IMG/VR virus record: IMGVR_UViG_2939521961_000002
Source: a virus
Taxonomy: Duplodnaviria > Heunggongvirae > Uroviricota > Caudoviricetes
DNA: 47,124 bases
Strand: one strand, 5' to 3'
Below are positions 10,899 to 39,431 of the stretch, piece by piece. Position 1 is the stretch's first letter. The number at the start of each line of letters is the position of its first letter. A program made the translations under genes and the position numbers. A model generated the notes under the pieces. The model was given only the letters and a program-made list of their open reading frames with translations, had not been told where the DNA came from and made no database searches.

Positions 10899-10903
10899 TT
10901 TAA

Positions 10904-15334: not shown

Positions 15335-15419
15335 AGTCAGAGATAACAATCAACTAATACTGTTTCGTTGATTTTTGCTTGTAATTGGCGTTCTGGTCTG
15401 ATTTTTGTGGAGTAAGTTG

Positions 15420-15991: not shown

Positions 15992-17074
15992 TTAGAACTG
16001 GTAAACCATACCTACAGCAACGATATCATCGGTAGCAACGCCAGATGCTTTCGTGAAATCGCTCTTATCAATCAGGTTGATTTTGTAGTCAACAAAAGTG
16101 GACATATTTTTGTTGAAGTAATAGGTTGCACCTACATCAATATATTCAACCAGGTCCTGATCACCCCAAGCACCCAAGTCTTTCCCTTTAGATTGCAGAT
16201 AAGCAACGGACGGACGCAGACCGAAGTCGAACTGATATTGTGCAACTACTTCGAAGTTTTGTGCTTTGTTGGCAATATGGTTTTTACCAAAAACAGTCAT
16301 GTTTTGGGTTTCAGAATAGGTAGTAGCCAGATAGATGTTGTTCGCATCATATTTCAGACCAGCTGCCCATACTTCAGCATTTTGACCAGATGCATTCAGG
16401 CTGTTGTTACCGTAGATAACCTGATTATTAGTGCGATCAGATTTAGCATAGGTTGCACCTACGCCGAAACCTTCATACTCATAAGTAGTGGAGAAACCGA
16501 AACCATCACCATTAGCTTGAGTTACGTCAGTACGGTCATTTTTACCCTGATACTGAGCAGCAAAGTTCAGACCATCAACCAGACCAAAGAAGTCATTGTT
16601 ACGATAAGTTGCAACACCTGTGGTGCGACCAGTCATGAATACATCTGTTTGGGTCCAGGTATCGCCACCGAATTCTGGCAGAACGTCGGTCCATGCACCA
16701 ATATCGTATGCTACACCGTAGTTACGGCCATAATCGATGGAGCCGTAGTCACCGAATTTCAGGCCAGCGAAGGCAAGACGGGTTTTATCTTTGGAGGAAC
16801 CTTGAGATTCAGCGCGGTTGCCTTTGAATTCATATTCCCACTGACCGAAACCAGTCAGTTGATCGTTGATTTGGGTTTCACCTTTGAAGCCAAGACGGGC
16901 ATAAGTAGTATCACCATCATCTGCATCATTAGAGGAGAAGTAGTGCTTAGCATTAACTTTCCCGTACAGATCCAGCTTGTTACTGTCTTTATTATAAATT
17001 TCAGCTGCCTGAGCAGACATCGCCATCAGTACTGATGCAGCTACAGCAGAAATTGCCACTGTTAATTTTTTCAT
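15992..17074 (-). CDS. nmpC: Outer-membrane porin (OmpC/OmpF/NmpC family), intact
   Basis: 360 aa with signal peptide [23 protein letters not shown], aromatic-rich beta-barrel sequence ending ...VAVGMVYQF; convergent to the late operon, as nmpC in DLP12. Confidence 0.88.
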
Positions 17075-17502
17075 CGTGAGCCCTTTTTTTTGAACTATTA
17101 TTAAAAAATGATGTCACTGCGCGATAAATATTCATCTAATCAATGTGATTATTTCAAGATGTAAGTTTTGGTTTCTCATTTGATTTGTGAAGTAGATCTC
17201 TATTTTTATCTGAACTTTTTCTATCGAATCCTATTCATGGCTCTTGGCTGAATAAAAATAAATCTATTAGCCAATTTATATTAATGGCTGTTATTTATAA
17301 GTGCCCTATAATTTGAAGGTTCAATTTAAATCGGCTAAAAATAACGCTGGAAATTATTTGTTGGTTATTTGTTGAGATTTGTTTATGTATTTGTAGTGGT
17401 GTTTTCAATACTCGGTAGCATTCTCGCAAATATCATTTAGTGGTTTACGTACGTAAAAAATTGGTTATGCTGTTAAGAGTGGTTACTTCGTCACACAGCT
17501 TA

Positions 17503-17525
17503 AACCCGCCGTCGAGCGGGTTTTT
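17503..17525 (+). terminator. Intrinsic terminator upstream of the lysis cassette (tR'-like candidate)
   Basis: AACCCGC-CGTCGA-GCGGGTT followed by TTTTTCCATTTTTT. Confidence 0.45.
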
Positions 17526-17662
17526 CCATTTTTTGAGTCTCGATATTAGCTGATAACCCAATACCTGAGTTATTCACTGACTCCGAGTCTGTTACGTTTC
17601 TGCTTTTTTGCGATACGTTGTATTCCCTCAATTTACACCCGCTTTGTCTGCGAGGTGGGGTT

Positions 17663-17878
17663 ATGAAATCCATGGATAAGTTAACAACGGGTGTCGCCTA
17701 TGGCACCTCAGCAGGTAGTGCCGGTTACTGGTTTTTACAGCTGCTCGATAAAGTCACGCCCTCACAGTGGGCAGCAATAGGTGTGCTGGGTAGCCTGGTA
17801 TTTGGCCTGCTGACGTACCTGACAAACCTTTATTTCAAGATTAAAGAAGATAAGCGCAAGGCTGCGAGAGGTGAATAA
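17663..17878 (+). CDS. essD: Holin, phage-21 S-type pinholin with dual start motif
   Basis: 71 aa [29 protein letters not shown]...KRKAARGE; Met1/Met4 dual-start arrangement; GAGGTGGGG upstream. Confidence 0.85.
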
Positions 17879-18375
17879 TGCCTCCATCATTACGAAAAGC
17901 CGTTGCTGCTGCTATTGGTGGCGGAGCAATTGCTATAGCATCAGTGTTAATCACTGGCCCAAGTGGTAACGATGGTCTGGAAGGTGTCAGCTACATACCA
18001 TACAAAGATATTGTTGGTGTATGGACTGTATGTCACGGGCATACAGGAAAAGACATCATGCTCGGTAAAACGTATACCAAAGCAGAATGCAAAGCACTCT
18101 TGAATAAAGACCTTGCCACTGTCGCCAGACAAATTAACCCGTACATCGAAGTCGATATACCGGAAACAACGCGCGGCGCTCTTTACTCATTCGTTTACAA
18201 CGTGGGTGCTGGCAATTTCAGAACATCGACGCTTCTTCGCAAAATAAACCAGGGCGATATCAAAGGCGCATGTGATCAGCTACGTCGCTGGACATATGCT
18301 GGCGGTAAGCAATGGAAAGGTCTCATGACTCGTCGTGAGATTGAGCGTGAAATCTGTTTGTGGGGTCAGCAATGA
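17878..18375 (+). CDS. rrrD: SAR endolysin (T4-lysozyme-like with N-terminal signal-arrest-release helix)
   Basis: 165 aa; hydrophobic Gly/Ala-rich N-terminus [20 protein letters not shown]; lysozyme-like body; start overlaps holin stop. Confidence 0.85.
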
Positions 18376-18833
18376 ACAGAGTAACCGCGATTATCTCCGC
18401 TCTGGTTATCTGCATCATCGTCTGCCTGTCATGGGCTGTTAATCATTACCGTGATAACGCCATTACCTACAAAGCCCAGCGCGACAAAAATGCCAGAGAA
18501 CTGAAGCTGGCGAACGCGGCAATTACTGACATGCAGATGCGTCAGCGTGATGTTGCTGCGCTCGATGCAAAATACACGAAGGAGTTAGCTGATGCGAAAG
18601 CTGAAAATGATGCTCTGCGTGATGATGTTGCCGCTGGTCGTCGTCGGTTGCACATCAAAGCAGTCTGTCAGTCAGTGCGTGAAGCCACCACCGCCTCCGG
18701 CGTGGATAATGCAGCCTCCCCCCGACTGGCAGACACCGCTGAACGGGATTATTTCACCCTCAGAGAGAGGCTGATCACTATGCAAAAACAACTGGAAGGA
18801 ACCCAGACGTATATTAATGAGCAGTGCAGATAG
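18372..18833 (+). CDS. rzpD: Rz i-spanin
   Basis: 153 aa with N-terminal TM helix and coiled-coil periplasmic domain; Rz1 embedded in the +1 frame. Confidence 0.8.
18592..18774 (+). CDS. rzoD: Rz1 o-spanin lipoprotein (embedded in Rz)
   Basis: 60 aa; lipobox LVVVGC; proline-rich ([16 protein letters not shown]). Confidence 0.7.
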
Positions 18834-19158: not shown

Positions 19159-19498
19159 CTTATTATCCTGCATTGTTAAAAACGGCAGAATCCTATGTGA
19201 CAACAATTAAACGATAGTTAAATGGATTGATGAAAATTAAAACTATATAGGTGGATGCTCAGCCTATTGGAGGAGGGGGGCACTCAGAATCCTGTGGAAT
19301 GAAATAAACCGCTCTATCTGTCCATTACCCTTTTAGCTGCGCTGTATCGTCGCCGTATTCCCGCATTAACCATGACCGTAGCCCGACGGGGAATTCCTTC
19401 TGCGTGAGTGTGCGGGAATAATCAAAAACGATGCACACCGGGTTTTACTGTGCTGACTGAACCGCCCCGGGTTCCTGGAGAGTGTTTTATCTGTGAAC

Positions 19499-20389
19499 TC
19501 AGGCTGCCAGATCATCGTTTCCGATGGAAGCATAATAAGCTTTTTCTGCTTCTGCCGGAGGAGTATGGCCCAGCCTTCCCAGCAATCGTCGATTGTTATA
19601 CCAGTCCACCCACGTTAGTGTGGCCAGTTCCACTTCTGCACGGTTTTTCCAGCTCTTACGGTGTATTACCTCCGCTTTGTAAAGACCATTGATGCTCTCA
19701 GCCATCGCGTTGTCATACGAGTCGCCTGTACTCCCTGTTGATGCCAGTAATCCGGCTTCTTTTAGTCGCTCCGTATAGGCCAGTGACACATACTGAGAGC
19801 CTTTATCGCTGTAATGGATGGTGCCAGACGGACGACGGGCCCACAACGCCTGCTCCAGCGCATCCAGCACGAATGTCGTTTCCATAGACGATGAGACCCG
19901 CCCCCCCACGATGTATCCGGCAAACACATCAATGATAAACGCCACATAGACGAAGCCCTGCCATGTGCTGACGTAAGTAAAATCAGCCACCCACAGCTGG
20001 TCAGGACGTTCTGCCACGAACTGACGGTTTACGCGGTCACCTGTGGCAACGGTTTTCCGGCTGACGGTAGTGCGGACCTTTTTACCCCGGAGAACACCGG
20101 CAAGTCCCATAACCGCCATGAGGCGCGCCACTGTACATCTGGCCACCCTGATTCCTTCCCGTAACAACTGACGCCAGACTTTACGCACACCGTACACCTG
20201 ATGATTTTCATCGTATACGCGCTGTATCTCTCTCTTCAGCCAGTCATCGTGCTGCGCACGGGCACTGCGTTTATCCGGATGATGTCGCTGTTGCTGACAA
20301 TGGTAATACGTTGACGGGGCAATATGCAGTTCGCTGCATACCGGTCCGACCCCGTACTGCTCACGCAGCTTATCCAGCAGTGGCATCAT
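19499..20389 (-). CDS. IS3-family transposase OrfB, copy 2
   Basis: 296 aa; near-identical to 4166..5056 product with several substitutions. Confidence 0.85.
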
Positions 20390-20712
20390 TTTTTCCAGAG
20401 GCGGTCGAACTCCGCCTTCGCAAAATAAGCGGAAGCCTGGCGAAGGATATCGTTACTGCGGCGCAGTTCACGATTTTCACGTTCCAGCTCTTTCAGACGC
20501 TGACGTTCAGCGCTGGTGAGCCCACCATCACCGCCCCCGGTATCCCGCTCATGCTGGCGAACCCAGACACGCAGGGTCTCCGGCGTACAGCCAATCTTTG
20601 GGGCAATGGAACAAATTGCCGCCCACTGTGAGTCATATTCATCCTGACTTTCCAGAACCATACGAATCGCCCGCTGACGGACTTCGGGGGAAAAACGAGT
20701 ATTTTTAGTCAT
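20386..20712 (-). CDS. IS3-family transposase OrfA, copy 2
   Basis: 108 aa identical in length to 3843..4169 product. Confidence 0.85.
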
Positions 20713-20829
20713 CCTGTTTACCTCTTTCTCAGGGAGTTTAGTCTCCAGGATTTCCGGGGCGGTTCAGACAGACGCAGGGTTACCCTCATAGTCGCTTTTC
20801 CGGTGCGATGGTGGAAGAAACCGGGATGT

Positions 20830-21223: not shown

Positions 21224-21235
21224 GGGCGGCGACCT
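21224..21235. other. cos: cosN cohesive-end site
   Basis: GGGCGGCGACCT followed by CGCGGGTTTTCGCTATTTATGAAAATTTTCCGG, matching the lambda left end from memory. Confidence 0.8.
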
Positions 21236-21412
21236 CGCGGGTTTTCGCTATTTATGAAAATTTTCCGGTTTAAGGCGTTTCCGTTCTTCTTCGTCGTAAC
21301 TTAATGTTTTTATTTAAAACACCCTCTGAAAAGAAAGGAAACGACAGGTGCTGAAAACGAGCTTTTTGGCCTCTGTCGTTTCCTTTCTCTGTTTTTGTCC
21401 GTGGAATGAACA

Positions 21413-21932
21413 ATGGAAGTCAACAAAAAGCAGCTGGCTGACATTTTCGGCGCGAGTATCCGTACCATTCAGAACTGGCAGGAGCAGGGAATGCCCGTTC
21501 TGCGGGGTGGTGGCAAGGGTAATGAAGTGCTTTATGACTCTGCCGCCGCCATAAAATGGTATGCCGAAAGGGATGCTGAAATTGAGAACGAAAAGCTGCG
21601 CCGGGAAGTTGAAGAACTGCGGCAGGCCAGCGAGACAGATCTCCAGCCAGGGACTATTGAGTACGAACGCCATCGACTTACGCGTGCGCAGGCCGACGCA
21701 CAGGAGCTGAAAAATGCCAGAGACTCCGCTGAAGTGGTGGAAACCGCATTCTGTACTTTCGTGCTGTCGCGGATCGCAGGTGAAATTGCCAGTATTCTCG
21801 ACGGGATCCCCCTGTCGGTGCAGCGGCGTTTTCCGGAACTGGAAAACCGACATGTTGATTTCCTGAAACGGGATATCATCAAAGCCATGAACAAAGCAGC
21901 CGCGCTGGATGAACTGATACCGGGGTTGCTGA

Positions 21933-21958
<26 letters not shown>
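21413..21958 (+). CDS. nu1: Terminase small subunit Nu1
   Basis: 181 aa MEVNKKQLADIFGASIRTIQNWQEQGMPV... matches lambda Nu1. Confidence 0.95.
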
Positions 21959-25659
<3,701 letters not shown>

Positions 25660-26131
25660 TCTCCCGCATATTGCCAGCATGGCTTTTAATGAGCCGCTGA
25701 TGCTTGAACCCGCCTATGCGCGGGTTTTCTTTTGTGCGCTTGCAGGCCAGCTTGGGATCAGCCGCCTGACGGATGCGGTGTCCGGCGACAGCCTGACTGC
25801 CCAGGAGGCACTCGCGACGCTGGCATTATCCGGTGATGATGACGGACCACGACAGGCCCGCAGTTATCAGGTCATGAACGGCATCGCCGTGCTGCCGGTG
25901 TCCGGCACGCTGGTCAGCCGGACGCGGGCGCTGCAGCCGTACTCGGGGATGACCGGTTACAACGGCATTATCGCCCGTCTGCAACAGGCTGCCAGCGATC
26001 CGATGGTGGACGGCATTCTGCTCGATATGGACACGCCCGGCGGGATGGTGGCGGGGGCATTTGACTGCGCTGACATCATCGCCCGTGTGCGTGACATAAA
26101 AGTAAGCGACTCGTCAGAACCGTATTGATAT

Positions 26132-27703
26132 TTACTGAGAGCTCAGATCAACTTTCCAGGGCAACAGATCGCGTACCCGGTTTGCCGGCCAGTCCTGGAT
26201 ATGTTCAATGACGTAACGCAGCCACTTTTCTGGCTCCACATTGTTCAGACGGCATGTGCCGATCAGCGAGTACAACACCGCCGCATGTTCACCACCGCTG
26301 TCGGAACCCGCGAACATCCAGTTTTTCCGGCCTACGGCCACTCCCCGTAAGGCGTTCTCTGCGATGTTGTTGTCGATTTCCACCCAGCCATTACTGCAGT
26401 ACACGTTCAGTGCATCCCACTGTTTCAGCAGGTATGCGAACGCTTTTGCCGTATCTGAGTGACGCGACAGTGTTTTCATCTGTTGCTGTATCCAGTCATA
26501 CAGTGACTGCATCAGTGGCGCGGCTCTGGCTTTTCTTGCCGCCAGACGCTGTTCTGCTGAACAGCCCCGGACCTCTGCCTCGATGGCATACAGTTCACCG
26601 ATACGCTGCAGGGCTTCCGTGGTGATGTAGGTGGGCGCTCTTGCATGCACATCGTGGATTTTTCTCCGGGCATGAGCCATACACGCGGCTTCCGTTATTC
26701 TGCCGGATTCGTATAACGCCCGGTAACCACCGTAAGCATCGGCCTGAAGCACACCGCTGTAACCGGCCAGGTGATTTTGTGGATGGATACCTTTCCGGTC
26801 CGGACTGTACGCGAACCAGACCGCCGGGGGCATCTGTGAACCGGCGTTACGGTCATCACGGACGTAGACCCACAGCCGGGCTGTCCGGGTTTTACCGCTG
26901 CCCGGCTCCTGGACCGGGACGGGGATATCATCAGCATGGACTTTACCGGGCATCAGCACATACTGGCGCAGGACGTCATACAGCGGCTCCAGCAGTTCAG
27001 CAACAGCACCTGTCCAGCGCCCCAGTGTGGCACGGCTCAGCTCCACTCCCTGACGACGGTATATTTCTGACTGGCGGTATAACGGCAGATGGTCTGCATA
27101 TTTCCCGGTGACAACATGGGCCAGAAGCCCCGCTCCGGCATAACTGCGTGCAATGGGTTTTGAAGGTACTGGTGCCTGCACGATATGGTCGCACCGGCAA
27201 CAGGCCTGTTTCGGACGTTGTGTTTCGATAACCTTAAAGGCGCTGCTGATAAGCTCCAGTTGCTCTGACACATCACATCCCAGAGAACTGAGTTCACCAC
27301 CACAGGCAGGACAGCATTCCTCTTCCGGCCGGATAACCCGGGTTTCACGGGGAAGTGAGGCCGGTAACGGTTTACGGGCTGAAGACTGGCGCAGGGCGGA
27401 TGGCAGTACCGGGTCATATTGCTCACCCAGCGTTTCCGCCATTTCTTCCTGAAGTGCGCTGATTCGCTCCTGTGCTTCCTGTATCTGCCGTTCGGTTTTT
27501 GCACGAAGTTTTTCTGAGCTTTTACCGAACTGCATACGTTGCAGTTTCGCAACCAGCGCCTTCAGCCGGTTGATTTCGGAAGCATAAGCCGCCACCCGCT
27601 GTGAGAGCAGGCGGTTGTATTCAGCCATCTGGCGGATGGTGTCCTGTTGCGTCTGCAACAGTGCCCGCAGGCGGGCGTTCTCATGAGCAAGTGAGGTGTC
27701 CAT
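26132..27703 (-). CDS. IS66-family transposase (TnpC/ORF3)
   Basis: 523 aa with N-terminal leucine zipper-like region, CxxC...CxxC zinc-finger motifs and DDE-type core. Confidence 0.85.
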
Positions 27704-27722
27704 ATCCTCACTTTACAACGGG

Positions 27723-28070
27723 TTATATGCGGATTCCAGCGCGTTCCGTTCGTTTCGGGTGCTTCCAGTTGATACCTTCAAGAAGCATGGATAACTGAGC
27801 CGGAGTAAGGTGCACCTTGCCGTCACGGGTGACTGGCCAGACGAAGCGGCCCCGCTCCAGGCGTTTGGTGAAGAGGCACAGTCCGTCACTGTCAGCCCAC
27901 AACACTTTTATCTGGTCACCCCGGCGTCCGCGGAAGATGAACAGGTGTCCGGAGAACGGGTCATCCTTCAGGACGTTCTGAACTTTTGATGCCAGGCCGT
28001 TAAAGCCATTTCGCATATCGGTGATACCTGCAACCAGCCAGATACGCGAACCTGCAGGGAGAGATATCAT
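27723..28070 (-). CDS. IS66-family accessory protein TnpB (ORF2)
   Basis: 115 aa MISLPAGSRIWLVAGITDMRNGFNGLA... typical IS66 Orf2. Confidence 0.8.
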   Translation of the reverse strand: MISLPAGSRIWLVAGITDMRNGFNGLASKVQNVLKDDPFSGHLFIFRGRRGDQIKVLWADSDGLCLFTKRLERGRFVWPVTRDGKVHLTPAQLSMLLEGINWKHPKRTERAGIRI

Positions 28071-28747
28071 CAGTGGCTGCTCCCTTTTATTTCGCGGATA
28101 AGTGTCTGTAATAACGCCGGCGTCAGTTTACCTTTAAGCCTGAGAGTTCCGGCCGGCAGAACCAGCTCACAACACAGACTGTCGGACGGTGTATTTATCT
28201 GCTCTGGTTCCTGTGCGGGGGCCGGGATTTTATTATCCGGCTCCGGCGTTAACGTCACGGGAAGCAGTGCCGGCATATTTTTTCCGGAAGGCAGCAGGCC
28301 ACCTTTCCGGTATTGATGGCGCCAGTTGAAGAGCAGGTTATCGTTGATTCCGTTTTCCCGGGCGATCTGCGCCACACAGGCTCCGGGCTGCAGTGACTGC
28401 TCCACTAAGGCGATTTTAAACTCATAAGGGAAGTTGGGCCGCCGGGGACGTTTTTTTACCACGGGGGCTTCGGATATAACGGTGCTTTCAGGACGTACGA
28501 CTGGTACCGTGGAAAATTGTCCGTAAAGGCAGGCATCAAGTTCCTGCTCCGACATGCCTGCGGGCAAAGGCCACGAAAGGCCAGCTCTCCGAAAGCGCAC
28601 GAACATACTACAAACTGTTGATTTTGGTACACCCAGGCGACGCCCGGCCACAACCCGGGGTAAATGTTCTTCAAAGTGAAGACGTAAAGCTTCAGTGATC
28701 CAGGTCCGGTGTTTCATACGATAGTGTCCATTAAAAATGATGGACAT
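28070..28747 (-). CDS. IS66-family accessory protein TnpA (ORF1), start uncertain
   Basis: Up to 225 aa with HTH-like N-terminal region; overlaps tnpB start; true start may be internal. Confidence 0.6.
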   Translation of the reverse strand: MSIIFNGHYRMKHRTWITEALRLHFEEHLPRVVAGRRLGVPKSTVCSMFVRFRRAGLSWPLPAGMSEQELDACLYGQFSTVPVVRPESTVISEAPVVKKRPRRPNFPYEFKIALVEQSLQPGACVAQIARENGINDNLLFNWRHQYRKGGLLPSGKNMPALLPVTLTPEPDNKIPAPAQEPEQINTPSDSLCCELVLPAGTLRLKGKLTPALLQTLIREIKGSSH

Positions 28748-29270
28748 TATTTTTGTAGAGCCGGAGGAAACAGACCAGACGGTTTAAATGAGCCGGTTAC
28801 ACATAAAACCGGTATGGGCGCTTGCCAACGACATGAACTGCAGTGCAGGTCAGTTGCTTGCCAGTGCCGCCTCCCGGCGTCTGGTCACGCAGACCGCCCG
28901 GACAGGCTCCATCGGCGTCATGATGGCTCACAGTAATTACGGTGCTGCGCTGGAGAAACAGGGTGTGGAAATCACGCTGATTTACAGCGGCAGCCATAAG
29001 GTGGATGGCAACCCCTACAGCCATCTTCCGGATGACGTCCGGGAGACACTGCAGTACCGGATGGACGCAACCCGCCAGATGTTTGCGCAGAAGGTGTCGG
29101 CATATACCGGCCTGTCCGTGCAGGCTGTGCTGGATACCGAGGCTGCAGTGTACAGCGGTCAGGAGGCCATTGATGCCGGACTGGCTGATGAACTTGTTAA
29201 CAGCACCGATGCGATCACCGTCATGCGTGATGCACTGGATGCACGTAAATCCCGTCTCTCAGGAGGGCGA

Positions 29271-29666
29271 ATGACCAAAGAGACTCAATCAACAACTGTT
29301 TCAGCCACTGCTTCGCAGGCTGACGTTACTGACGTGGTGCCAGCGACGGAGGGCGAAAACGCCAGCGCGGCGCAGCCGGACGTGAACGCGCAGATCACCG
29401 CAGCGGTTGCGGCAGAAAACAGCCGCATTATGGGGATCCTCAACTGTGAGGAGGCTCACGGACGCGAAGAACAGGCACGCGTGCTGGCAGAAACCCCCGG
29501 TATGACCGTGGAAACGGCCCGCCGCATTCTGGCCGCAGCACCACAGAGTGCACAGGCGCGCAGTGACACTGCGCTGGATCGTCTGATGCAGGGTGCCCCG
29601 GCACCGCTGGCTGCAGGTAACCCGGCATCTGATGCCGTTAACGATTTGCTGAACACACCAGTGTAA
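29271..29666 (+). CDS. nu3: Scaffolding protein Nu3 (in-frame internal start within C)
   Basis: 131 aa MTKETQSTTVSATASQ... after AGGAGGG; intact despite the upstream IS insertion in C. Confidence 0.8.
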   Translation: MTKETQSTTVSATASQADVTDVVPATEGENASAAQPDVNAQITAAVAAENSRIMGILNCEEAHGREEQARVLAETPGMTVETARRILAAAPQSAQARSDTALDRLMQGAPAPLAAGNPASDAVNDLLNTPV

Positions 29667-29675
29667 GGGATGTTT

Positions 29676-30008
29676 ATGACGAGCAAAGAAACCTTTACCC
29701 ATTACCAGCCGCTGGGCAACAGTGACCCGGCTCATACCGCAACCGCGCCCGGCGGATTGAGTGCGAAAGCGCCTGCAATGACCCCGCTGATGCTGGACAC
29801 CGCCACCCGTAAGCTGGTTGCGTGGGATGGCACCACCGACGGTGCTGCCGTTGGCATTCTGGCGGTTGCTGCTGACCAGACCAGCACCACGCTGACGTTC
29901 TACAAGTCCGGCACGTTCCGTTATGAGGATGTGCTCTGGCCGGAGGCTGCCAGCGATGAGACGAAAAAACGGACCGCGTTTGCCGGAACGGCAATCAGCA
30001 TCGTTTAA
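29676..30008 (+). CDS. D: Head decoration protein D
   Basis: 110 aa [27 protein letters not shown]... matches lambda gpD. Confidence 0.95.
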
Positions 30009-30029
30009 CCTTACCCTTCATCACTAAAG

Positions 30030-30050
30030 GCCGCCTGTGCGGCTTTTTTT
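30030..30050 (+). terminator. Hairpin plus T-run between D and E
   Basis: GCCGC-CTGT-GCGGC followed by TTTTTTT. Confidence 0.5.
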
Positions 30051-30063
30051 ACGGGATTTTTTT

Positions 30064-31089
30064 ATGTCGATGTACACAACCGCCCAGCTGCTGGCGGCAA
30101 ATGAGCAGAAATTTAAGTTTGATCCGCTGTTTCTGCGTCTCTTTTTCCGTGAGAGCTATCCCTTCACCACGGAGAAAGTCTATCTCTCACAAATTCCGGG
30201 ACTGGTAAACATGGCGCTGTACGTTTCGCCGATTGTTTCCGGTGAGGTTATCCGCTCCCGTGGCGGCTCCACCTCTGAATTTACGCCGGGATATGTCAAA
30301 CCCAAGCATGAAGTGAATCCGCAGATGACCCTGCGTCGCCTGCCGGATGAAGATCCACAGAATCTGGCGGACCCGGCTTACCGCCGCCGTCGCATCATCC
30401 TGCAGAACATGCGAGACGAAGAGCTGGCCATTGCTCAGGTCGAAGAGATGCAGGCAGTTTCTGCCGTGCTTAAGGGCAAATACACCATGACCGGTGAAGC
30501 CTTCGATCCGGTTGAAGTGGATATGGGCCGCAGTGTGGCGAACAACATCACGCAGTCCGGCGGTACGGAGTGGAGCAAGCGTGACAAGTCCACGTATGAC
30601 CCGACCGACGATATCGAAGCCTACGCGCTGAACGCCAGCGGTGTGGTGAATATCATCGTGTTTGATCCGAAAGGCTGGGCGCTGTTCCGTTCCTTCAAAG
30701 CCGTCAAGGAGAAGCTGGATACCCGTCGCGGCTCTCATTCCGAGCTGGAGACAGCGGTAAAAGACCTGGGCGAAGCGGTGTCCTATAAGGGGATGTATGG
30801 CGATACGGCGATCGTCGTGTATTCCGGACAGTACGTGGAAAACGACGTCAAAAAGAACTTCCTTCCGGACAACACGATGGTGCTGGGGAACACTCAGGCA
30901 CGCGGTCTGCGCACCTATGGCTGCATTCAGGATGCGGACGCACAGCGCGAAGGTATTAACGCCTCTGCCCGCTACCCGAAAAACTGGGTGACCACCGGCG
31001 ATCCGGCGCGTGAGTTCACCATGATTCAGTCAGCACCGCTGATGCTGCTGGCTGACCCTGATGCGTTCGTGTCCGTACAACTGGCGTAA
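30064..31089 (+). CDS. E: Major capsid protein E
   Basis: 341 aa MSMYTTAQLLAANEQKFKFDPLFLRLFF... matches lambda gpE. Confidence 0.95.
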   Translation: MSMYTTAQLLAANEQKFKFDPLFLRLFFRESYPFTTEKVYLSQIPGLVNMALYVSPIVSGEVIRSRGGSTSEFTPGYVKPKHEVNPQMTLRRLPDEDPQNLADPAYRRRRIILQNMRDEELAIAQVEEMQAVSAVLKGKYTMTGEAFDPVEVDMGRSVANNITQSGGTEWSKRDKSTYDPTDDIEAYALNASGVVNIIVFDPKGWALFRSFKAVKEKLDTRRGSHSELETAVKDLGEAVSYKGMYGDTAIVVYSGQYVENDVKKNFLPDNTMVLGNTQARGLRTYGCIQDADAQREGINASARYPKNWVTTGDPAREFTMIQSAPLMLLADPDAFVSVQLA

Positions 31090-31130
31090 TCATGGCCCTT
31101 CGGGGCCATTTTCTCTCTGTGGAGGAGTCC

Positions 31131-31526
31131 ATGACGAAAGATGAACTGATTGCCCGTCTTCAGGTGCTGGGTGAGCAACTGAACCGTGATGTCAGCCTGA
31201 CGGGGACGAAAGAAGAACTGGCACTCCGTGTGGCAGAGCTGGAAGAGGAGCTTGATGACACGGATGACGCTGCCGGTCAGGACACATCTGTCAGCCCGGA
31301 AAATGCGCTGACCGGACATGAAAATGAGGTTGTATCAGCGCAGCCGGATACCGTGACTGATACGGCTGATCTGGTCACGGTTGTGGCACTGGTGACGCTG
31401 CATACTGATGCACTTCACGCCACGCGGGATGAGGCTGTGGCATTTGTGCTGCCGGGAACGGCGTTCCGTGTCTCTGCCGGTGTGGCAGCTGAAATGACAG
31501 AGCGCGGCCTGGCCAGAATGCAATAA
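31131..31526 (+). CDS. FI: DNA packaging protein FI
   Basis: 131 aa MTKDELIARLQVLGEQLNRDVSLTG... matches lambda gpFI; GGAGGAG upstream. Confidence 0.9.
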   Translation: MTKDELIARLQVLGEQLNRDVSLTGTKEELALRVAELEEELDDTDDAAGQDTSVSPENALTGHENEVVSAQPDTVTDTADLVTVVALVTLHTDALHATRDEAVAFVLPGTAFRVSAGVAAEMTERGLARMQ

Positions 31527-31537
31527 CGGGAGGCGCT

Positions 31538-31912
31538 GTGGCTGATTTCGATAACCTGTTCGATGCTGCCATTGCCTGCGCCGATGAAACGATACGCGGG
31601 TACATGGGAACGTCAGCCACCATGACATCCGGTGAGCAGTCCGGTGCTGTGATACGTGGTGTTTTTGATGACCCTGAAAATATCAGCTATGCCGGACAGG
31701 GCGTGCGCGTTGAAGGCTCCAGCCCGTCCCTGTTTGTCCGGACTGATGATGTGCGGCAGCTGCGGCGCGGCGACACGCTGACCATCGGTGAGGAAAACTT
31801 CTGGATAGACCGGATTTCGCCGGATGATGGCGGAAGCTGTCATCTCTGGCTTGGGCGGGGCGTACCGCCTGCCGTTAACCGTCGCCGCTGGAAGGGGGAT
31901 GTATGGCCATAA
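31538..31912 (+). CDS. FII: Head-tail connector FII
   Basis: MADFDNLFDAAIACADETIRGYMGTSATMTSGEQSG... matches lambda gpFII; 3' end overlaps Z. Confidence 0.9.
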   Translation: MADFDNLFDAAIACADETIRGYMGTSATMTSGEQSGAVIRGVFDDPENISYAGQGVRVEGSSPSLFVRTDDVRQLRRGDTLTIGEENFWIDRISPDDGGSCHLWLGRGVPPAVNRRRWKGDVWP

Positions 31913-32481
31913 AAGGTCTTGAGCAGGCCGTTGAAAACCTCAGCCGTATCAGCAGAACGGCGGTGCCCGGTGCCGCCGCAATGGCCATTAACCGCGTTGC
32001 TTCATCCGCGATATCGCAGTCGGTGTCACAGGTTGCCCGTGAGACAAAGGTACGCCGGAAACTGGTAAAGGAAAGGGCCAGGCTGAAAAGGGCCACGGTC
32101 AAAAATCCGCAGGCCAGAATCAAGGTTAACCGGGGGGATTTGCCCGTAATCAAGCTGGGTAATGCGCGGGTTGTCCTTTCGCGCCGCAGGCGTCGTAAAA
32201 AGGGGCAGCGTTCATCCCTGAAAGGTGGCGGCAGCGTGCTTGTGGTGGGTAACCGTCGTATTCCCGGCGCGTTTATTCAGCAACTGAAAAATGGCCGGTG
32301 GCATGTTATGCAGCGTGTGGCCGGGAAAAACCGTTACCCCATTGATGTGGTGAAAATCCCGATGGCGGTGCCGCTGACCACGGCGTTTAAACAAAATATT
32401 GAGCGGATACGGCGTGAACGTCTTCCGAAAGAGCTGGGCTATGCGCTGCAGCATCAACTGAGGATGGTAATAAAGCGATGA
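31903..32481 (+). CDS. Z: Tail completion protein Z
   Basis: 192 aa matching lambda gpZ. Confidence 0.9.
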   Translation: MAIKGLEQAVENLSRISRTAVPGAAAMAINRVASSAISQSVSQVARETKVRRKLVKERARLKRATVKNPQARIKVNRGDLPVIKLGNARVVLSRRRRRKKGQRSSLKGGGSVLVVGNRRIPGAFIQQLKNGRWHVMQRVAGKNRYPIDVVKIPMAVPLTTAFKQNIERIRRERLPKELGYALQHQLRMVIKR

Positions 32482-32873
32482 AACATACTGAACTCCGTGC
32501 AGCCGTACTGGATGCACTGGAGAAGCATGACACCGGGGCGACGTTTTTTGATGGTCGCCCCGCTGTTTTTGATGAGGCGGATTTTCCGGCAGTTGCCGTT
32601 TATCTCACCGGCGCTGAATACACGGGCGAAGAGCTGGACAGCGATACCTGGCAGGCGGAGCTGCATATCGAAGTTTTCCTGCCTGCTCAGGTGCCGGATT
32701 CAGAGCTGGATGCGTGGATGGAGTCCCGGATTTATCCGGTGATGAGCGATATCCCGGCACTGTCAGAGTTGATCACCAGTATGGTGGCCAGTGGCTATGA
32801 CTACCGACGCGACGATGATGCGGGCCTGTGGAGTTCAGCCGATCTGACTTATGTCATTACCTATGAAATGTGA
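32478..32873 (+). CDS. U: Tail terminator U
   Basis: 131 aa [26 protein letters not shown]... matches lambda gpU. Confidence 0.9.
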
Positions 32874-32880
32874 GGACGCT

Positions 32881-33621
32881 ATGCCTGTACCAAATCCTGT
32901 AATGCCGGTGAAAGGTGCCGGGACCACCCTGTGGGTTTATAAGGGGAGCGGTGACCCTTATGCGAATCCGCTTTCAGACGTTGACTGGTCGCGTCTGGCA
33001 AAAGTTAAAGACCTGACGCCCGGCGAACTGACCGCTGAGTCCTATGACGACAGCTATCTCGATGATGAAGATGCGGACTGGACTGCGACCGGGCAGGGGC
33101 AGAAATCAGCCGGAGATACCAGCTTCACGCTGGCGTGGATGCCCGGAGAGCAGGGGCAGCAGGCGCTGCTGGCGTGGTTTAATGAAGGTGATACCCGTGC
33201 CTATAAAATCCGCTTCCCGAACGGCACGGTCGATGTGTTCCGTGGCTGGGTCAGCAGTATCGGTAAAGCGGTGACGGCGAAGGAAGTGATCACCCGCACG
33301 GTGAAGGTCACCAATGTGGGACGCCCGTCGATGGCAGAAGATCGCAGCACGGTCACAGCGGCAACCGGCATGACCGTGACGCCTGCCAGCACCTCGGTGG
33401 TGAAAGGGCAGAGCACCACGCTGACCGTGGCATTCCAGCCGGAAGGCGCAACCGACAAGAGCTTCCGTGCGGTGTCTGCGGATAAAACAAAAGCCACCGT
33501 GTCGGTCAGTGGTATGACCATCACCGTGAAAGGTGTTGCTGCAGGCAAGGTCAACATTCCGGTCGTATCCGGTAATGGTGAACTTGCTGCGGTTGCAGAA
33601 ATCACTGTCACCGACAGTTAA
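32881..33621 (+). CDS. V: Major tail protein V
   Basis: 246 aa [31 protein letters not shown]... matches lambda gpV including the C-terminal Ig-like domain. Confidence 0.95.
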
Positions 33622-33636
33622 TCCGGAGAGTCAGCG

Positions 33637-34059
33637 ATGTTCCTGAAAACCGAATCATTTGAACATAACGGCGTGACCGTCACGCTTTCTGAACTTTCAG
33701 CCCTGCAGCGTATTGAGCATCTCGCCCTGATGAAACGGCAGGCAGAACAGGCGGAGTCAGACAGCAACCGGAAGTTTACAGTGGAAGACGCCATCAGAAC
33801 CGGTGCTTTTGTGGTGGCGATGTCCCTGTGGCATAACCATCCGCAGAAGACAAAGCAGCCTTCCATGAATGAAGCCGTTAAACAGATTGAGCAGGAAGTG
33901 CTTACCACCTGGCCCACAGAGGCAATTTCTCATGCTGAAAACGTGGTGTACCGGCTGTCCGGTATGTATGAGTTTGTGGTGAATGATGCCCCTGAACAGG
34001 CAGAGGACGCCGGGCCTGCAGAGCCTGTTTCTGCGGGAAAGTGTTCGACGGTGAGCTGA
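33637..34059 (+). CDS. G: Tail assembly chaperone G
   Basis: 140 aa MFLKTESFEHNGVTVTLSELSALQRIEHL... matches lambda gpG. Confidence 0.9.
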   Translation: MFLKTESFEHNGVTVTLSELSALQRIEHLALMKRQAEQAESDSNRKFTVEDAIRTGAFVVAMSLWHNHPQKTKQPSMNEAVKQIEQEVLTTWPTEAISHAENVVYRLSGMYEFVVNDAPEQAEDAGPAEPVSAGKCSTVS

Positions 34060-34475
34060 GTTTTGCCCTGAAACTGGCGCGCGAGATGGGGCGACCCGAC
34101 TGGCGTGCCATGCTTGCCGGGATGTCATCCACGGAGTATGCCGACTGGCACCGCTTTTACAGTACCCATTATTTTCATGATGTTCTGCTGGATATGCACT
34201 TTTCCGGGCTGACGTACACCGTGCTCAGCCTGTTTTTCAGCGATCCGGATATGCATCCGCTGGATTTCAGTCTGCTGAACCGGCGTGAGGCTGACGAAGA
34301 GCCTGAAGATGATGTGCTGATGCAGAAAGCGGCAGGGCTTGCCGGAGGCGTCCGCTTTGGCCCGGACGGGAATGAAGTTATCCCCGCTTCCCCGGATGTG
34401 GCGGACATGACGGAGGATGACGTAATGCTGATGACAGTATCAGAAGGGATCGCAGGAGGAGTCCGGTATGGCTGA
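33637..34475 (+). CDS. T: G-T tail assembly chaperone fusion via programmed -1 frameshift
   Basis: Slippery heptamer G GGA AAG at 34035..34041 near the end of G; the -1 frame continues VFDGELSFALKLAREMGRPDWRAMLAG... (lambda gpT) to 34475. Confidence 0.8.
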
Positions 34476-37029
34476 ACCGGTAGGCGATCTGGTCGTTGAT
34501 TTAAGTCTGGATGCGGCCAGATTTGACGAGCAGATGGCCAGAGTCAGGCGTCATTTTTCCGGTACGGAAAGTGATGCGAAAAAAACAGCGGCAGTCGTTG
34601 AACAGTCGCTGAGCCGACAGGCGCTGGCTGCACAGAAAGCGGGGATTTCCGTCGGGCAGTATAAAGCCGCCATGCGTATGCTGCCTGCACAGTTCACCGA
34701 CGTGGCCACGCAGCTTGCAGGCGGGCAAAGTCCGTGGCTGATCCTGCTGCAACAGGGGGGGCAGGTGAAGGACTCCTTCGGCGGGATGATCCCCATGTTC
34801 AGGGGGCTTGCCGGTGCGATCACCCTGCCGATGGTGGGGGCCACCTCGCTGGCGGTGGCGACCGGTGCGCTGGCGTATGCCTGGTATCAGGGCAACTCAA
34901 CCCTGTCCGATTTCAACAAAACGCTGGTCCTTTCCGGCAATCAGGCGGGACTGACGGCAGATCGTATGCTGGTCCTGTCCAGAGCCGGGCAGGCGGCAGG
35001 GCTGACGTTTAACCAGACCAGCGAGTCACTCAGCGCACTGGTTAAGGCGGGGGTAAGCGGTGAGGCTCAGATTGCGTCCATCAGCCAGAGTGTGGCGCGT
35101 TTCTCCTCTGCATCCGGCGTGGAGGTGGACAAGGTCGCTGAAGCCTTCGGGAAGCTGACCACAGACCCGACGTCGGGGCTGACGGCGATGGCACGCCAGT
35201 TCCATAACGTGACGGCGGAGCAGATTGCGTATGTTGCTCAGTTGCAGCGTTCCGGCGATGAAGCCGGGGCATTGCAGGCGGCGAACGAGGCCGCAACGAA
35301 AGGGTTTGATGACCAGACCCGCCGCCTGAAAGAGAACATGGGCACGCTGGAGACCTGGGCAGACAGGACTGCGCGGGCCTTCAAATCCATGTGGGATGCG
35401 GTGCTGGATATTGGTCGTCCTGATACCGCGCAGGAGATGCTGATTAAGGCAGAGGCTGCGTTTAAGAAAGCAGACGACATCTGGAATCTGCGCAAGGATG
35501 ATTATTTTGTTAACGATGAAGCGCGGGCGCGTTACTGGGATGATCGTGAAAAGGCCCGTCTTGCGCTTGAAGCCGCCCGAAAGAAGGCTGAGCAGCAGAC
35601 TCAACAGGACAAAAATGCGCAGCAGCAGAGCGATACCGAAGCGTCACGGCTGAAATATACCGAAGAGGCGCAGAAGGCTTACAAACGGCTGCAGACGCCG
35701 CTGGAGAAATATACCGCCCGTCAGGAAGAACTGAACAAGGCACTGAAAGACGGGAAAATCCTGCAGGCGGATTACAACACGCTGATGGCGGCGGCGAAAA
35801 AGGATTATGAAGCGACGCTGAAAAAGCCGAAACAGTCCGGCGTGAAGGTGTCTGCGGGCGATCGTCAGGAAGACAGTGCTCATGCTGCCCTGCTGACGCT
35901 TCAGGCAGAACTCCGGACGCTGGAGAAGCATGCCGGAGCGAATGAGAAAATCAGCCAGCAGCGCCGGGATTTGTGGAAGGCAGAAAGTCAGTTCGCGGTA
36001 CTGGAGGAGGCGGCACAACGTCGCCAGCTGTCCGCACAGGAGAAATCCCTGCTGGCGCATAAAGATGAGACGCTGGAGTACAAACGCCAGCTGGCTGCAC
36101 TTGGCGACAAGGTTACGTATCAGGAGCGCCTGAACGCGCTGGCGCAGCAGGCGGATAAATTCGCACAGCAGCAACGGGCAAAACGGGCCGCCATTGATGC
36201 GAAAAGCCGGGGGCTGACTGACCGGCAGGCAGAACGGGAAGCCACGGAACAGCGCCTGAAGGAACAGTATGGCGATAATCCGCTGGCGCTGAATAACGTC
36301 ATGTCAGAGCAGAAAAAGACCTGGGCGGCTGAAGACCAGCTTCGCGGGAGCTGGATGGCAGGCCTGAAGTCCGGCTGGAGTGAGTGGGAAGAGAGCGCCA
36401 CGGACAGTATGTCGCAGGTAAAAAGTGCAGCCACGCAGACCTTTGATGGTATTGCACAGAATATGGCCGCGATGCTGACCGGCAGTGAGCAGAACTGGCG
36501 CAGCTTCACCCGTTCCGTGCTGTCCATGATGACAGAAATTCTGCTTAAGCAGGCAATGGTGGGGATTGTCGGGAGTATCGGCAGCGCCATTGGCGGGGCT
36601 GTTGGTGGCGGCGCATCCGCGTCAGGCGGTACAGCCATTCAGGCCGCTGCGGCGAAATTCCATTTTGCAACCGGAGGATTTACGGGAACCGGCGGCAAAT
36701 ATGAGCCAGCGGGGATTGTTCACCGTGGTGAATTTGTCTTCACGAAGGAGGCAACCAGCCGGATTGGCGTGGGGAATCTCTACCGGCTGATGCGCGGCTA
36801 TGCCACCGGTGGTTATGTCGGTACACCGGGCAGTCTGGCTGACAGCCGGTCGCAGGCGTCCGGGACGTTTGAGCAGAATAACCATGTGGTGATTAACAAC
36901 GACGGCACGAACGGGCAGATAGGTCCGGCTGCTCTGAAGGCGGTGTATGACATGGCCCGCAAGGGTGCCCGTGATGAAATTCAGACACAGATGCGTGATG
37001 GTGGCCTGTTCTCCGGAGGTGGACGATGA
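34468..37029 (+). CDS. H: Tail tape measure protein H
   Basis: 853 aa matching lambda gpH in sequence and length. Confidence 0.95.
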   Translation: MAEPVGDLVVDLSLDAARFDEQMARVRRHFSGTESDAKKTAAVVEQSLSRQALAAQKAGISVGQYKAAMRMLPAQFTDVATQLAGGQSPWLILLQQGGQVKDSFGGMIPMFRGLAGAITLPMVGATSLAVATGALAYAWYQGNSTLSDFNKTLVLSGNQAGLTADRMLVLSRAGQAAGLTFNQTSESLSALVKAGVSGEAQIASISQSVARFSSASGVEVDKVAEAFGKLTTDPTSGLTAMARQFHNVTAEQIAYVAQLQRSGDEAGALQAANEAATKGFDDQTRRLKENMGTLETWADRTARAFKSMWDAVLDIGRPDTAQEMLIKAEAAFKKADDIWNLRKDDYFVNDEARARYWDDREKARLALEAARKKAEQQTQQDKNAQQQSDTEASRLKYTEEAQKAYKRLQTPLEKYTARQEELNKALKDGKILQADYNTLMAAAKKDYEATLKKPKQSGVKVSAGDRQEDSAHAALLTLQAELRTLEKHAGANEKISQQRRDLWKAESQFAVLEEAAQRRQLSAQEKSLLAHKDETLEYKRQLAALGDKVTYQERLNALAQQADKFAQQQRAKRAAIDAKSRGLTDRQAEREATEQRLKEQYGDNPLALNNVMSEQKKTWAAEDQLRGSWMAGLKSGWSEWEESATDSMSQVKSAATQTFDGIAQNMAAMLTGSEQNWRSFTRSVLSMMTEILLKQAMVGIVGSIGSAIGGAVGGGASASGGTAIQAAAAKFHFATGGFTGTGGKYEPAGIVHRGEFVFTKEATSRIGVGNLYRLMRGYATGGYVGTPGSLADSRSQASGTFEQNNHVVINNDGTNGQIGPAALKAVYDMARKGARDEIQTQMRDGGLFSGGGR

Positions 37030-37355
37030 AAACCTTCCGCTGGAAAGTGAAACCCGGTATGGATGTGGCTTCGGCCCCTTCTGTAAGAAAGGTGCGCTTT
37101 GGTGATGGCTATTCCCAGCGAGCGCCTGCCGGGCTGAATGCCAACCTGAAAACGTACAGCGTGACGCTTTCTGTCCCCCGTGAGGAGGCCACGGTACTGG
37201 AGTCGTTTCTGGAAGAGCACGGGGGCTGGAAATCCTTTCTGTGGACGCCGCCTTATGAGTGGCGGCAGATAAAGGTGACCTGCGCAAAATGGTCGTCGCG
37301 GGTCAGTATGCTGCGTGTTGAGTTCAGCGCAGAGTTTGAACAGGTGGTGAACTGA
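37026..37355 (+). CDS. M: Tail tip protein M
   Basis: 109 aa MKTFRWKVKPGMDVASAPSVRKVRFGDGYSQRAP... matches lambda gpM. Confidence 0.9.
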   Translation: MKTFRWKVKPGMDVASAPSVRKVRFGDGYSQRAPAGLNANLKTYSVTLSVPREEATVLESFLEEHGGWKSFLWTPPYEWRQIKVTCAKWSSRVSMLRVEFSAEFEQVVN

Positions 37356-38053
37356 TGCAGGATATCCGGCAGGAAACACTGAATGAATGCACCCGTGCGG
37401 AGCAGTCGGCCAGCGTGGTGCTCTGGGAAATCGACCTGACAGAGGTCGGTGGAGAACGTTATTTTTTCTGTAATGAGCAGAACGAAAAAGGTGAGCCGGT
37501 CACCTGGCAGGGGCGACAGTATCAGGCGTATCCCATTCAGGGGACGGGATTTGAACTGAACGGCAAGGGCAGTGCTGCCCGTCCGACACTGACGGTTTCT
37601 AACCTGCACGGCATGGTCACCGGTATGGTGGAAGATATGCAGAGTCTGGTCGGCGGAACGGTGGTCAGGCGTAAGGTTTACGCCCGTTTTCTGGATGCGG
37701 TGAACTTCGTCAACGGAAACAGTTACGCCGATCCGGAGCAGGAGGTGATCAGCCGCTGGCGCATTGAGCAGTGCAGCGAACTGAGCGCGGTGAGTGCCTC
37801 CTTTGTACTGTCCACGCCGACGGAAACGGATGGCGCTGTTTTTCCGGGACGTATCATGCTGGCCAACACCTGCACCTGGACCTATCGCGGTGACGAGTGC
37901 GGTTATAGCGGTCCGGCTGTCGCGGATGAATATGACCAGCCAACGTCCGATATCACGAAGGATAAATGCAGCAAATGCCTGAGCGGTTGTAAGTTCCACA
38001 ATAACGTCGGCAACTTTGGCGGCTTCCTTTCCATTAACAAACTTTCGCAGTAA
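37355..38053 (+). CDS. L: Tail tip protein L
   Basis: 232 aa matching lambda gpL. Confidence 0.9.
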   Translation: MQDIRQETLNECTRAEQSASVVLWEIDLTEVGGERYFFCNEQNEKGEPVTWQGRQYQAYPIQGTGFELNGKGSAARPTLTVSNLHGMVTGMVEDMQSLVGGTVVRRKVYARFLDAVNFVNGNSYADPEQEVISRWRIEQCSELSAVSASFVLSTPTETDGAVFPGRIMLANTCTWTYRGDECGYSGPAVADEYDQPTSDITKDKCSKCLSGCKFHNNVGNFGGFLSINKLSQ

Positions 38054-38058
38054 ATCCC

Positions 38059-38709
38059 ATGACACAGACAGAATCAGCGATTCTGGCGCACGCCCGGCGA
38101 TGTGCGCCAGCGGAGTCGTGCGGCTTCGTGGTAAGCACGCCGGAGGGGGAAAGATATTTCCCCTGCGTGAATATCTCCGGTGAGCCGGAGGCGTATTTCC
38201 GTATGTCGCCGGAAGACTGGCTGCAGGCAGAAATGCAGGGGGAGATTGTGGCGCTGGTCCACAGCCACCCCGGTGGTCTGCCCTGGCTGAGTGAGGCCGA
38301 CCGGCGGCTGCAGGTGCAGAGTGATTTGCCGTGGTGGCTGGTCTGCCGGGGTGAGATTCATAAGTTCCGCTGTGTGCCGCATCTCACCGGGCGGCGCTTT
38401 GAGCACGGTGTGACGGACTGTTACACACTGTTCCGGGATGCTTATCATCTGGCGGAGATTGAGATGCCGGATTTTGTGCGTGAGGATGACTGGTGGCGTA
38501 ACGGTCAGAATCTCTATCTGGATAATCTGGAGGCCACAGGGCTGTATCAGGTGCCGTTGTCAGCGGCGCAGCCGGGCGATGTGCTGCTGTGCTGTTTTGG
38601 TTCATCGGTGCCGAATCACGCCGCTATTTACTGTGGTGACGGCGAGCTGCTGCACCATATTCCTGAACAACTGAGTAAACGGGAGAGGTATACCGACAAA
38701 TGGCAGTGA
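38059..38709 (+). CDS. K: Tail tip assembly protein K (JAB/MPN and NlpC/P60-like)
   Basis: 216 aa MTQTESAILAHARRCAPAESCGFVVSTPEGERYF... matches lambda gpK. Confidence 0.9.
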   Translation: MTQTESAILAHARRCAPAESCGFVVSTPEGERYFPCVNISGEPEAYFRMSPEDWLQAEMQGEIVALVHSHPGGLPWLSEADRRLQVQSDLPWWLVCRGEIHKFRCVPHLTGRRFEHGVTDCYTLFRDAYHLAEIEMPDFVREDDWWRNGQNLYLDNLEATGLYQVPLSAAQPGDVLLCCFGSSVPNHAAIYCGDGELLHHIPEQLSKRERYTDKWQ

Positions 38710-39371
38710 CGCACACACTCCCTCTGGCGTCACCGGGAATGGCACGCATCTGCCTTTACGGGGATTTGCAACGATTTGGCCGCCGCATCGACCTTCGTGT
38801 GAAAACGGGGGCTGAAGCCATCCGCGCACTGGCCACACAGCTCCCGGCGTTTCGTCAGAAACTGAGCGACGGCTGGTATCAGGTACGGATTGCCGGGCGG
38901 GACGTCAGCGCGTCCGGGTTAACGGCGCAGTTACATGAGACTCTGCCTGATGGCGCTGTGATTCATATTGTTCCCAGAGTCGCCGGGGCCAAGTCAGGTG
39001 GCGTATTCCAGATTGTCCTGGGGGCTGCAGCCATTGCCGGATCATTCTTTACCGCCGGAGCCACCCTTGCAGCATGGGGGGCAGCCATTGGGGCCGGTGG
39101 TATGACCGGCATCCTGTTTTCTCTCGGTGCCAGTATGGTGCTCGGTGGTGTGGCGCAGATGCTGGCACCGAAAGCCAGAACTCCCCGTACACAGACAACG
39201 GATAACGGTAAGCAGAACACCTATTTCTCCTCACTGGATAACATGGTTGCCCAGGGCAATGTTCTGCCTGTTCTGTACGGGGAAATGCGCGTGGGGTCTC
39301 GCGTGGTTTCTCAGGAGATCAGCACGGCAGACGAAGGGGACGGTGGTCAGGTTGTGGTGATTGGTCGCTGA
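38700..39371 (+). CDS. I: Tail tip assembly protein I
   Basis: 223 aa matching lambda gpI. Confidence 0.9.
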   Translation: MAVTHTLPLASPGMARICLYGDLQRFGRRIDLRVKTGAEAIRALATQLPAFRQKLSDGWYQVRIAGRDVSASGLTAQLHETLPDGAVIHIVPRVAGAKSGGVFQIVLGAAAIAGSFFTAGATLAAWGAAIGAGGMTGILFSLGASMVLGGVAQMLAPKARTPRTQTTDNGKQNTYFSSLDNMVAQGNVLPVLYGEMRVGSRVVSQEISTADEGDGGQVVVIGR

Positions 39372-39431
39372 TGCAAAATGTTTTATGTGAAACCGCCTGC
39401 GGGCGGTTTTGTCGTTTATGGAGCGTGAGGA

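Follow-up and report, generated by a model that had tools for sequence, protein, structure and literature searches.

How did head gene C of a lambda-like prophage come to lie in two pieces, and what does the break mean for the phage? We addressed this question in an IMG/VR virus record (IMGVR_UViG_2939521961_000002; Duplodnaviria; Heunggongvirae; Uroviricota; Caudoviricetes), a stretch of 47,124 nucleotides (nt) that was analysed at its full length and is referred to below as the window. Between the two pieces of C lies an insertion sequence (IS) of the IS66 family. We consider it about 95% probable that gene C was interrupted when an ISCro1-type element of this family transposed into a lambda-like prophage at argU in the Escherichia coli O26:H11 lineage.

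The break is framed by two copies of one octamer. The first-pass annotation of the window had placed the insertion at 26094 to 28808, and these coordinates proved exact: they take in the IS and both copies of ACATAAAA.

26094 to 26101, unstranded: left copy of the 8-bp target-site duplication, ACATAAAA, equivalent to lambda nt 4872-4879 and comprising part of C codon 152 together with codons 153-154.
26102 to 28800, minus strand: complete IS66-family IS of 2,699 bp, its genes antiparallel to phage late transcription; labelled ISCro1 family in RefSeq by the Prokaryotic Genome Annotation Pipeline (PGAP).
28801 to 28808, unstranded: right copy of the duplication, ACATAAAA, read from the sequence.

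Comparison with uninterrupted relatives identified the original state of the site. Lambda nt 1-4879 aligns to window positions 21224-26101 and lambda nt 4872-18474 to positions 28801-42401. The two alignments overlap at lambda nt 4872-4879, and the octamer is therefore single in lambda and double in the window. The same 8-bp overlap was obtained with the orthologous argU prophage of strain 2013C-3342, in which C is uninterrupted and carries no IS. A chance 8-bp repeat was also considered as a source of the two copies and is ruled out by the alignments to lambda and to this IS-free prophage. Additionally, we rebuilt the empty site as a 240-nt probe and counted a genome as carrying it if at least 80% of the probe was covered without interruption. 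By this measure, 3,157 complete E. coli genomes have the site without interruption; the 30 best-listed matches, lambda DE3 lysogens among them, are 100% identical across the whole query.

The DNA between the two octamers has the anatomy of a complete transposable element.

26102 to 26123, unstranded: terminal inverted repeat at the tnpC-proximal end, GTAAGCGACTCGTCAGAACCGT, read from the sequence.
26132 to 27703, minus strand: tnpC, encoding a DDE transposase of 523 aa with the domains LZ_Tnp_IS66, zf-IS66, DDE_Tnp_IS66 and DDE_Tnp_IS66_C.
27723 to 28070, minus strand: tnpB, encoding an IS66 Orf2-like accessory protein of 115 aa (PF05717, E = 4.7e-40, profile positions 2-100 of 101).
28070 to 28747, minus strand: tnpA, encoding an accessory protein of 225 aa with HTH_Tnp_1 (PF01527) at residues 102-159.
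28779 to 28800, unstranded: terminal inverted repeat at the tnpA-proximal end, reverse complement GTAACCGGCTCATTTAAACCGT, read from the sequence.

The element is a textbook IS66-family IS. It has the three-gene layout, the TnpC domains, the type of TnpB, the 8-bp duplication and the imperfect terminal repeats of the family, and the earlier assignment to IS66 with an 8-bp duplication agrees with both the protein domains and the flanking octamers. The catalytic domain of TnpC (PF03050) was recognised with E = 2.5e-103 over profile positions 1-283 of 284, and the other Pfam domains of this protein are PF13005, PF13007 and PF13817. TnpB is of the IS66 Orf2 type, which is unrelated to the TnpB of IS200/IS605. 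The stop codon of tnpA and the start codon of tnpB overlap in TGATG, and tnpC starts 19 nt past the tnpB stop. Ends of IS66-family elements are imperfect inverted repeats of about 20-30 bp, typically opening with GTAA; the two termini here start with GTAAGCG and GTAACCG and match each other at 16 of 22 positions.

Among known elements, ISCro1 shares with the window copy the gene order tnpA-tnpB-tnpC, the 8-bp duplication and the GTAA ends, and PGAP names the transposase 'IS66-like element ISCro1 family transposase'. This name follows from a family-level label rather than from a comparison with the ISfinder reference copy. The element also resembles IS66 and IS679, the founding members of the family and the ones studied best; the window TnpA is long (225 aa), and its roughly 100 extra N-terminal residues have no Pfam match. 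Han et al. (2001) reportedly found that IS679 requires all of its three genes, with tnpA and tnpB overlapping and tnpC some 20 nt further on, a layout also seen in the window. An 8-bp target duplication has been reported for IS66 (PMC6778807). ISCro1 is the most expanded IS of Citrobacter rodentium ICC168, with 24 copies (PMC3072379), and it has been described upstream of afa in E. coli sequence type 131 (ST131; PMC8764528).

Full-length copies that are 100% identical to the window element were listed at many other E. coli loci, both chromosomal and on plasmids. In 1,793 records the best match to the IS has at least 99% identity, and the chromosome of strain E2865 matches it in 14 places. Identical copies at so many loci suggest that the IS has recently been active in E. 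coli. When species-representative genomes were scanned for the exact 30 nt of the left end, only two metagenome-bin contigs were found, and no Citrobacter rodentium. Both contigs (SFEB01000082.1 and SFGJ01000083.1, from bins named 'Clostridiales bacterium') carry this same IS of E. coli, and one of them has a length of exactly 2,699 bp and 99.96% identity. They are probably mis-binned enterobacterial repeat DNA.

The effect on the target is clear from the pieces of C that remain on each side.

25640 to 26101, plus strand: 5′ fragment of head gene C, codons 1-154; its frame continues for 8 codons of IS sequence (VSDSSEPY) up to a stop codon at 26126-26128.
28809 to 29666, plus strand: 3′ fragment of C, codons 155-439, carrying almost the whole Pfam S49 domain together with Ser166 and the scaffold (Nu3) portion.
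29271 to 29666, plus strand: nested scaffold gene Nu3, from Met309 of C to the stop codon, with AGGAGG upstream; intact.

Removal of the IS and one copy of the octamer restores a C gene of 439 codons, whose product aligns to lambda C without gaps over 440 positions, at 99.1% identity; in DNA, the rebuilt gene is 99.4% identical to nt 4418-5737 of NC_001416. Thus, once the IS is taken out, C is colinear with its lambda counterpart and Nu3 is nested in frame, as in lambda. The differences are the split and the start codon, which is GTG here and ATG in lambda. Gene C is indeed interrupted, as previously proposed: the insertion point follows codon 154 (RDIK|PVW), the halves lie 2,707 bp apart, and PGAP marks both of them as pseudogenes in RefSeq. 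Nu3 had been described as intact and is so, as is an earlier in-frame start of this gene given in the RefSeq annotation of lambda, which corresponds to window position 29061.

We found that the position of the break within the protein differs from what had been assumed. The IS was said to part an N-terminal protease from the C-terminal part of C. The Pfam domain Peptidase_S49 (PF01343) covers residues 150-297 of rebuilt C (E = 5.7e-44), and residues 81-298 align to SppA of Bacillus subtilis (3RST). Ser166 of C stands opposite the serine of the SppA motif 'AASGG', which we take to be the SppA nucleophile. Rebuilt C thus has an S49/SppA-like fold together with the serine, and in the window the protease frame is broken. 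The IS cuts this fold after about a third of its length, 12 codons ahead of Ser166, with most of the fold downstream of the element. Because the insertion lies inside the stretch 81-298, the break falls within the protease and not between protease and scaffold.

The insertion is not new; it is an instance of a well-described phenomenon and is already annotated in more than 100 published E. coli genomes of the O26 lineage. Complete E. coli genomes that contain the junctions unbroken number 111 for the left one, probed with 600 nt across it, and 113 for the right one. They include O26:H11 strain 11368 (NC_013361.1), many other O26 strains, one O111:H11 and one labelled O103. In the RefSeq record of 11368, 'S49 family peptidase, incomplete' is entered on both sides of 'IS66-like element ISCro1 family transposase', tnpB and tnpA, and over window positions 5099-47124 this genome differs from the window by 4 substitutions in 42 kb. 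An O26 mobilome paper makes no mention of the insertion. These genomes also bear on the objection, raised with the original description, that the junctions might be an assembly artefact, with a copy of the IS wrongly joined to the prophage because of its repeated sequence. The IS is certainly a multicopy repeat, as the 14 places in E2865 illustrate, and the stand-alone 2,699-bp contig in a metagenome bin demonstrates that such repeats do collapse in assemblies. Nevertheless, the junctions are intact in more than a hundred independently assembled complete genomes, and a misjoin would not produce perfect 8-bp copies, one on each side, of a sequence that lambda and the orthologous prophage have only once at this site. 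The objection was not upheld, and we regard the chance of such an artefact as negligible.

One of the genomes carries the two junctions far apart. In RM8385 (NZ_CP028112.1) the left junction lies at 636452-637051 and the right half of the prophage at 3162369-3174968, 2.5 Mb away and on the opposite strand. The IS beside the right half abuts a fragment of the ISEc22 family and unrelated genes. This arrangement indicates an inversion of about 2.5 Mb by recombination between ISCro1-type copies, which split the prophage.

Taken as a transposition, the locus can be accounted for in a few steps. The DDE transposase TnpC, aided by TnpA and TnpB, would have made staggered cuts 8 bp apart at the target and inserted the IS, and repair of the gaps would have produced the duplicated octamer. 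A single event of this kind in an ancestor would then have been inherited vertically, because the junctions are identical in 111-113 genomes and only 4 single-nucleotide polymorphisms (SNPs) in 42 kb separate the window from 11368. The insertion may therefore serve as a lineage marker, one ancestral event common to the O26:H11 lineage and its relatives. As for the consequences, neither fragment of C would be expected to yield an active protease. In Table 1 of PMC10695390, C and Nu3 both count among the essential lambda genes. Since C is an essential head gene there, the prophage alone could not make mature heads, and we infer that this locus by itself would be unable to provide functional ones. 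The insertion thereby explains why the window prophage cannot build heads unaided, and beyond that its importance is small.

We found no evidence that contradicts the insertion itself. Two observations nevertheless qualify parts of the account given above. An ATG at 28788, in the end of the IS, opens a hybrid open reading frame (ORF) that reads into the 3′ part of C; it has no well-spaced ribosome-binding site, but it could in principle give an N-terminally truncated C protein. The other concerns the name of the element: the copy called 'ISCro1' in ST131 is 2,824 bp long (PMC8764528), compared with 2,699 bp here. A scan of positions 25900-29000 for promoters and terminators gave counts that were not above those of shuffled controls.

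The insertion in C is not the only damage to this prophage; lesions are also present in bet and in K.

3789 to 5098, unstranded: IS3-family (IS629/IS1203-like) element of 1,310 bp in bet, after about codon 106; GCA is duplicated at 3786-3788 and 5099-5101.
38707 to 38709, plus strand: premature TGA in tail gene K, at codon 217 of 247; CGA in the orthologous prophage.

The earlier statement that bet is disrupted was borne out by the IS629/IS1203-like element, which is present in the window and absent from 11368, where bet is intact. For the bet junction, no one-piece match was found among the best matches listed from 5,426 complete E. coli genomes; the full-coverage matches shown for it consist of two pieces joined through chance proximity. 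The bet insertion is specific to the strain of the window, which is not itself among those complete genomes. The nonsense codon in K, in turn, is common to the window and 11368, where PGAP records an 'internal stop'; in the truncated K product the JAB domain is kept, as is almost the whole NlpC/P60 domain.

In the early region, an excisionase-like ORF at 1020-1421 on the minus strand fits HTH_17 over its first 36 residues only and overlaps int by 145 nt. PGAP places an incomplete helix-turn-helix (HTH) gene, scored as a pseudogene, at 1326-1391, where the excisionase is expected, and Xis may be defective. No N-type antiterminator was recognised in PHROG and Pfam scans of the early-region ORFs on the minus strand between the kil-like gene and the repressor (6000-7350). 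For an ORF of 147 aa in the same region (6551-6994), which may be truncated, the match to phrog_3556 is confined to the C-terminal half (positions 128-267 of 276).

Much of the remaining prophage is well preserved. It occupies the site at argU (tRNA-Arg) beside fimZ, that is, the DLP12 site, in the E. coli O26:H11 lineage (window 1-1164 and flanks). The late region has about 97-98% DNA identity to lambda, the neighbours of C, namely B, D and E, are 97-99% identical to their lambda counterparts, and the late genes from nu1 through tfa are full length relative to lambda, K excepted. The cosN site is present at 21224 and the terminase is intact. Tail genes, lysis genes and morons had all been reported as apparently intact; this is true of the lysis genes and the morons (iss/bor, a lom-like gene and an ompC-like porin gene), but not of the tail genes, given the change from CGA to TGA in K at 38707.

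Whether the broken C gene is final depends on what else the host cell carries. The first-pass annotation had made its conclusion subject to there being no intact C elsewhere, which does not hold in reference strain 11368. This strain has a sister lambda-like prophage (NC_013361.1, 1181536-1222855) in which C and K are intact. Its C gene is uninterrupted at 1,201,536-1,202,855 and annotated as a normal coding sequence; the DNA is 97% identical to rebuilt C and the protein is identical at 430 of 439 positions. The head proteins from Nu1 to Z are 96-99% identical to those of the window, and the tail proteins 64-87% (K 87%, L 76%, I 69%, J 64%). The sister prophage also carries a gene for an EspF-repeat (TccP2-like) effector and a frameshifted integrase gene. 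At least 24 genomes appear both in the list with the interrupted C and in the list with this intact C allele, and in Stx1a-converting phages from a phage collection the C gene is 97.1% identical in DNA. As the sister prophage holds an intact, 98%-identical C, the defect is therefore recessive in such strains. In 11368, supply of gpC in trans from the sister prophage, or repair of C by homologous recombination, is plausible. The prior claim that the prophage very likely forms no infectious particles stands as far as the knockouts of C and bet go, but its certainty was overstated in view of the intact C in 11368.

From these data one could argue that the prophage with the interrupted C is not a dead end, being packaged or transferred with gpC and gpK supplied in trans, or having its C repaired across the head module of about 10 kb. 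The close match of the head proteins in the second prophage of 11368, the genomes that hold both alleles, the Stx1a phages with a similar C gene, and the intact cosN and terminase of the window prophage all speak for such a rescue. So does a precedent from O157, whose defective prophages with similar lesions are described as inducible, packaged and sometimes transferred (PMC2669165). This has to be set against the further lesions (the nonsense codon in K, the truncated excisionase-like ORF, the IS in bet and the lack of a recognisable N gene) and against the lower identity of the sister tail proteins, with K at only 87%, L at 76%, I at 69% and J at 64%. Moreover, the sister prophage is established in 11368, and the window sequence cannot show it for its own strain. 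We therefore hold rescue to be possible, though on balance doubtful. A more elaborate version, in which the insertion makes the argU prophage helper-dependent, appears highly improbable to us. Under it, the prophage would be mobilised only when a partner (the sister prophage or an incoming Stx1a phage) is induced and supplies gpC, and the IS would be a hotspot for recombination, shuffling head modules and rearranging the chromosome in the way seen in RM8385. The retention of cos, terminase, portal, capsid and nearly all tail genes would fit this idea. In strains with the sister C, at any rate, 'defective' should not be read as 'immobile', in agreement with the findings on the O157 prophage pool (PMC2669165).

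The original annotation saw the locus as consistent with a domesticated prophage retained for accessory functions. Spelled out, this reading has selection preserving the knockouts of C and bet, which would leave the host with the morons (iss/bor, the lom-like gene, the ompC-like porin gene and the HEPN pair) and the lysis and tail functions but without the risk of a productive lytic cycle. It can draw on the fixation of the C insertion in 111-113 genomes of one lineage, on the intact morons and lysis genes, and on the independent lineage of 2013C-3342, which retains the late half and the morons and has lost the early region. However, the window shows 4 SNPs relative to 11368 over 42 kb, and clonal fixation of this sort needs no selection; since the lineage is almost clonal, the fixation of the insertion carries no information on selection. 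The late genes retain about 97-98% DNA identity to lambda, and IS insertions and one nonsense codon make up all of the damage, a pattern typical of recent neutral decay. The damage to tail gene K speaks against selection for tail function, and in RM8385 the prophage has been split by an IS-mediated inversion. Domestication is accordingly unlikely in our judgement, somewhat less so than the helper-dependent scheme. The overall pattern looks like ongoing, lineage-specific and recent decay rather than a conserved domesticated state, as far as can be judged from sequence.

The argU prophage of 2013C-3342 (NZ_CP027766.1, 2594138-2634377) has taken an independent route of decay. Its C and K are intact and it has no IS3 element. 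Everything between a truncated integrase gene and the HEPN gene has been lost, which amounts to the whole early and immunity region.

The prophage pool Sp1-Sp18 of enterohaemorrhagic E. coli O157 Sakai is comparable with the window prophage in that its members are likewise lambda-like and inactivated by IS elements and point mutations, with several related prophages per genome (PMC2669165). With the cryptic prophage DLP12 of K-12, it shares the site and the PGAP gene names intD, quuD, essD, rrrD and rzpD, with nohD in the 2013C-3342 copy. The window prophage is far more complete than DLP12 and has a lambda-type head and tail region.

A further element of the IS3 family was located upstream of the late genes.

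19458 to 20766, minus strand: second element of the IS3 family, in the interval between iss/bor and ylcI and some 460 bp upstream of cosN; without a counterpart in the 2013C-3342 prophage.

The late transcript would run across this element, which is 95.6% identical to the one in bet.

Between P and the nin region, an accessory cluster extends over window positions 10904-13708. It contains an integron-cassette-like protein (PF18315) on the minus strand and a short antirepressor-like protein with the P22AR C-terminal domain. The gene for a HEPN-domain protein overlaps that for a partner of 133 aa without a family match, and the two could be a toxin-antitoxin or defence pair. At the other end of the prophage, the side tail fibre gene (43580-46540) is a single ORF of 986 codons, which in the lambda reference record is divided into two ORFs, orf-401 and orf-314.

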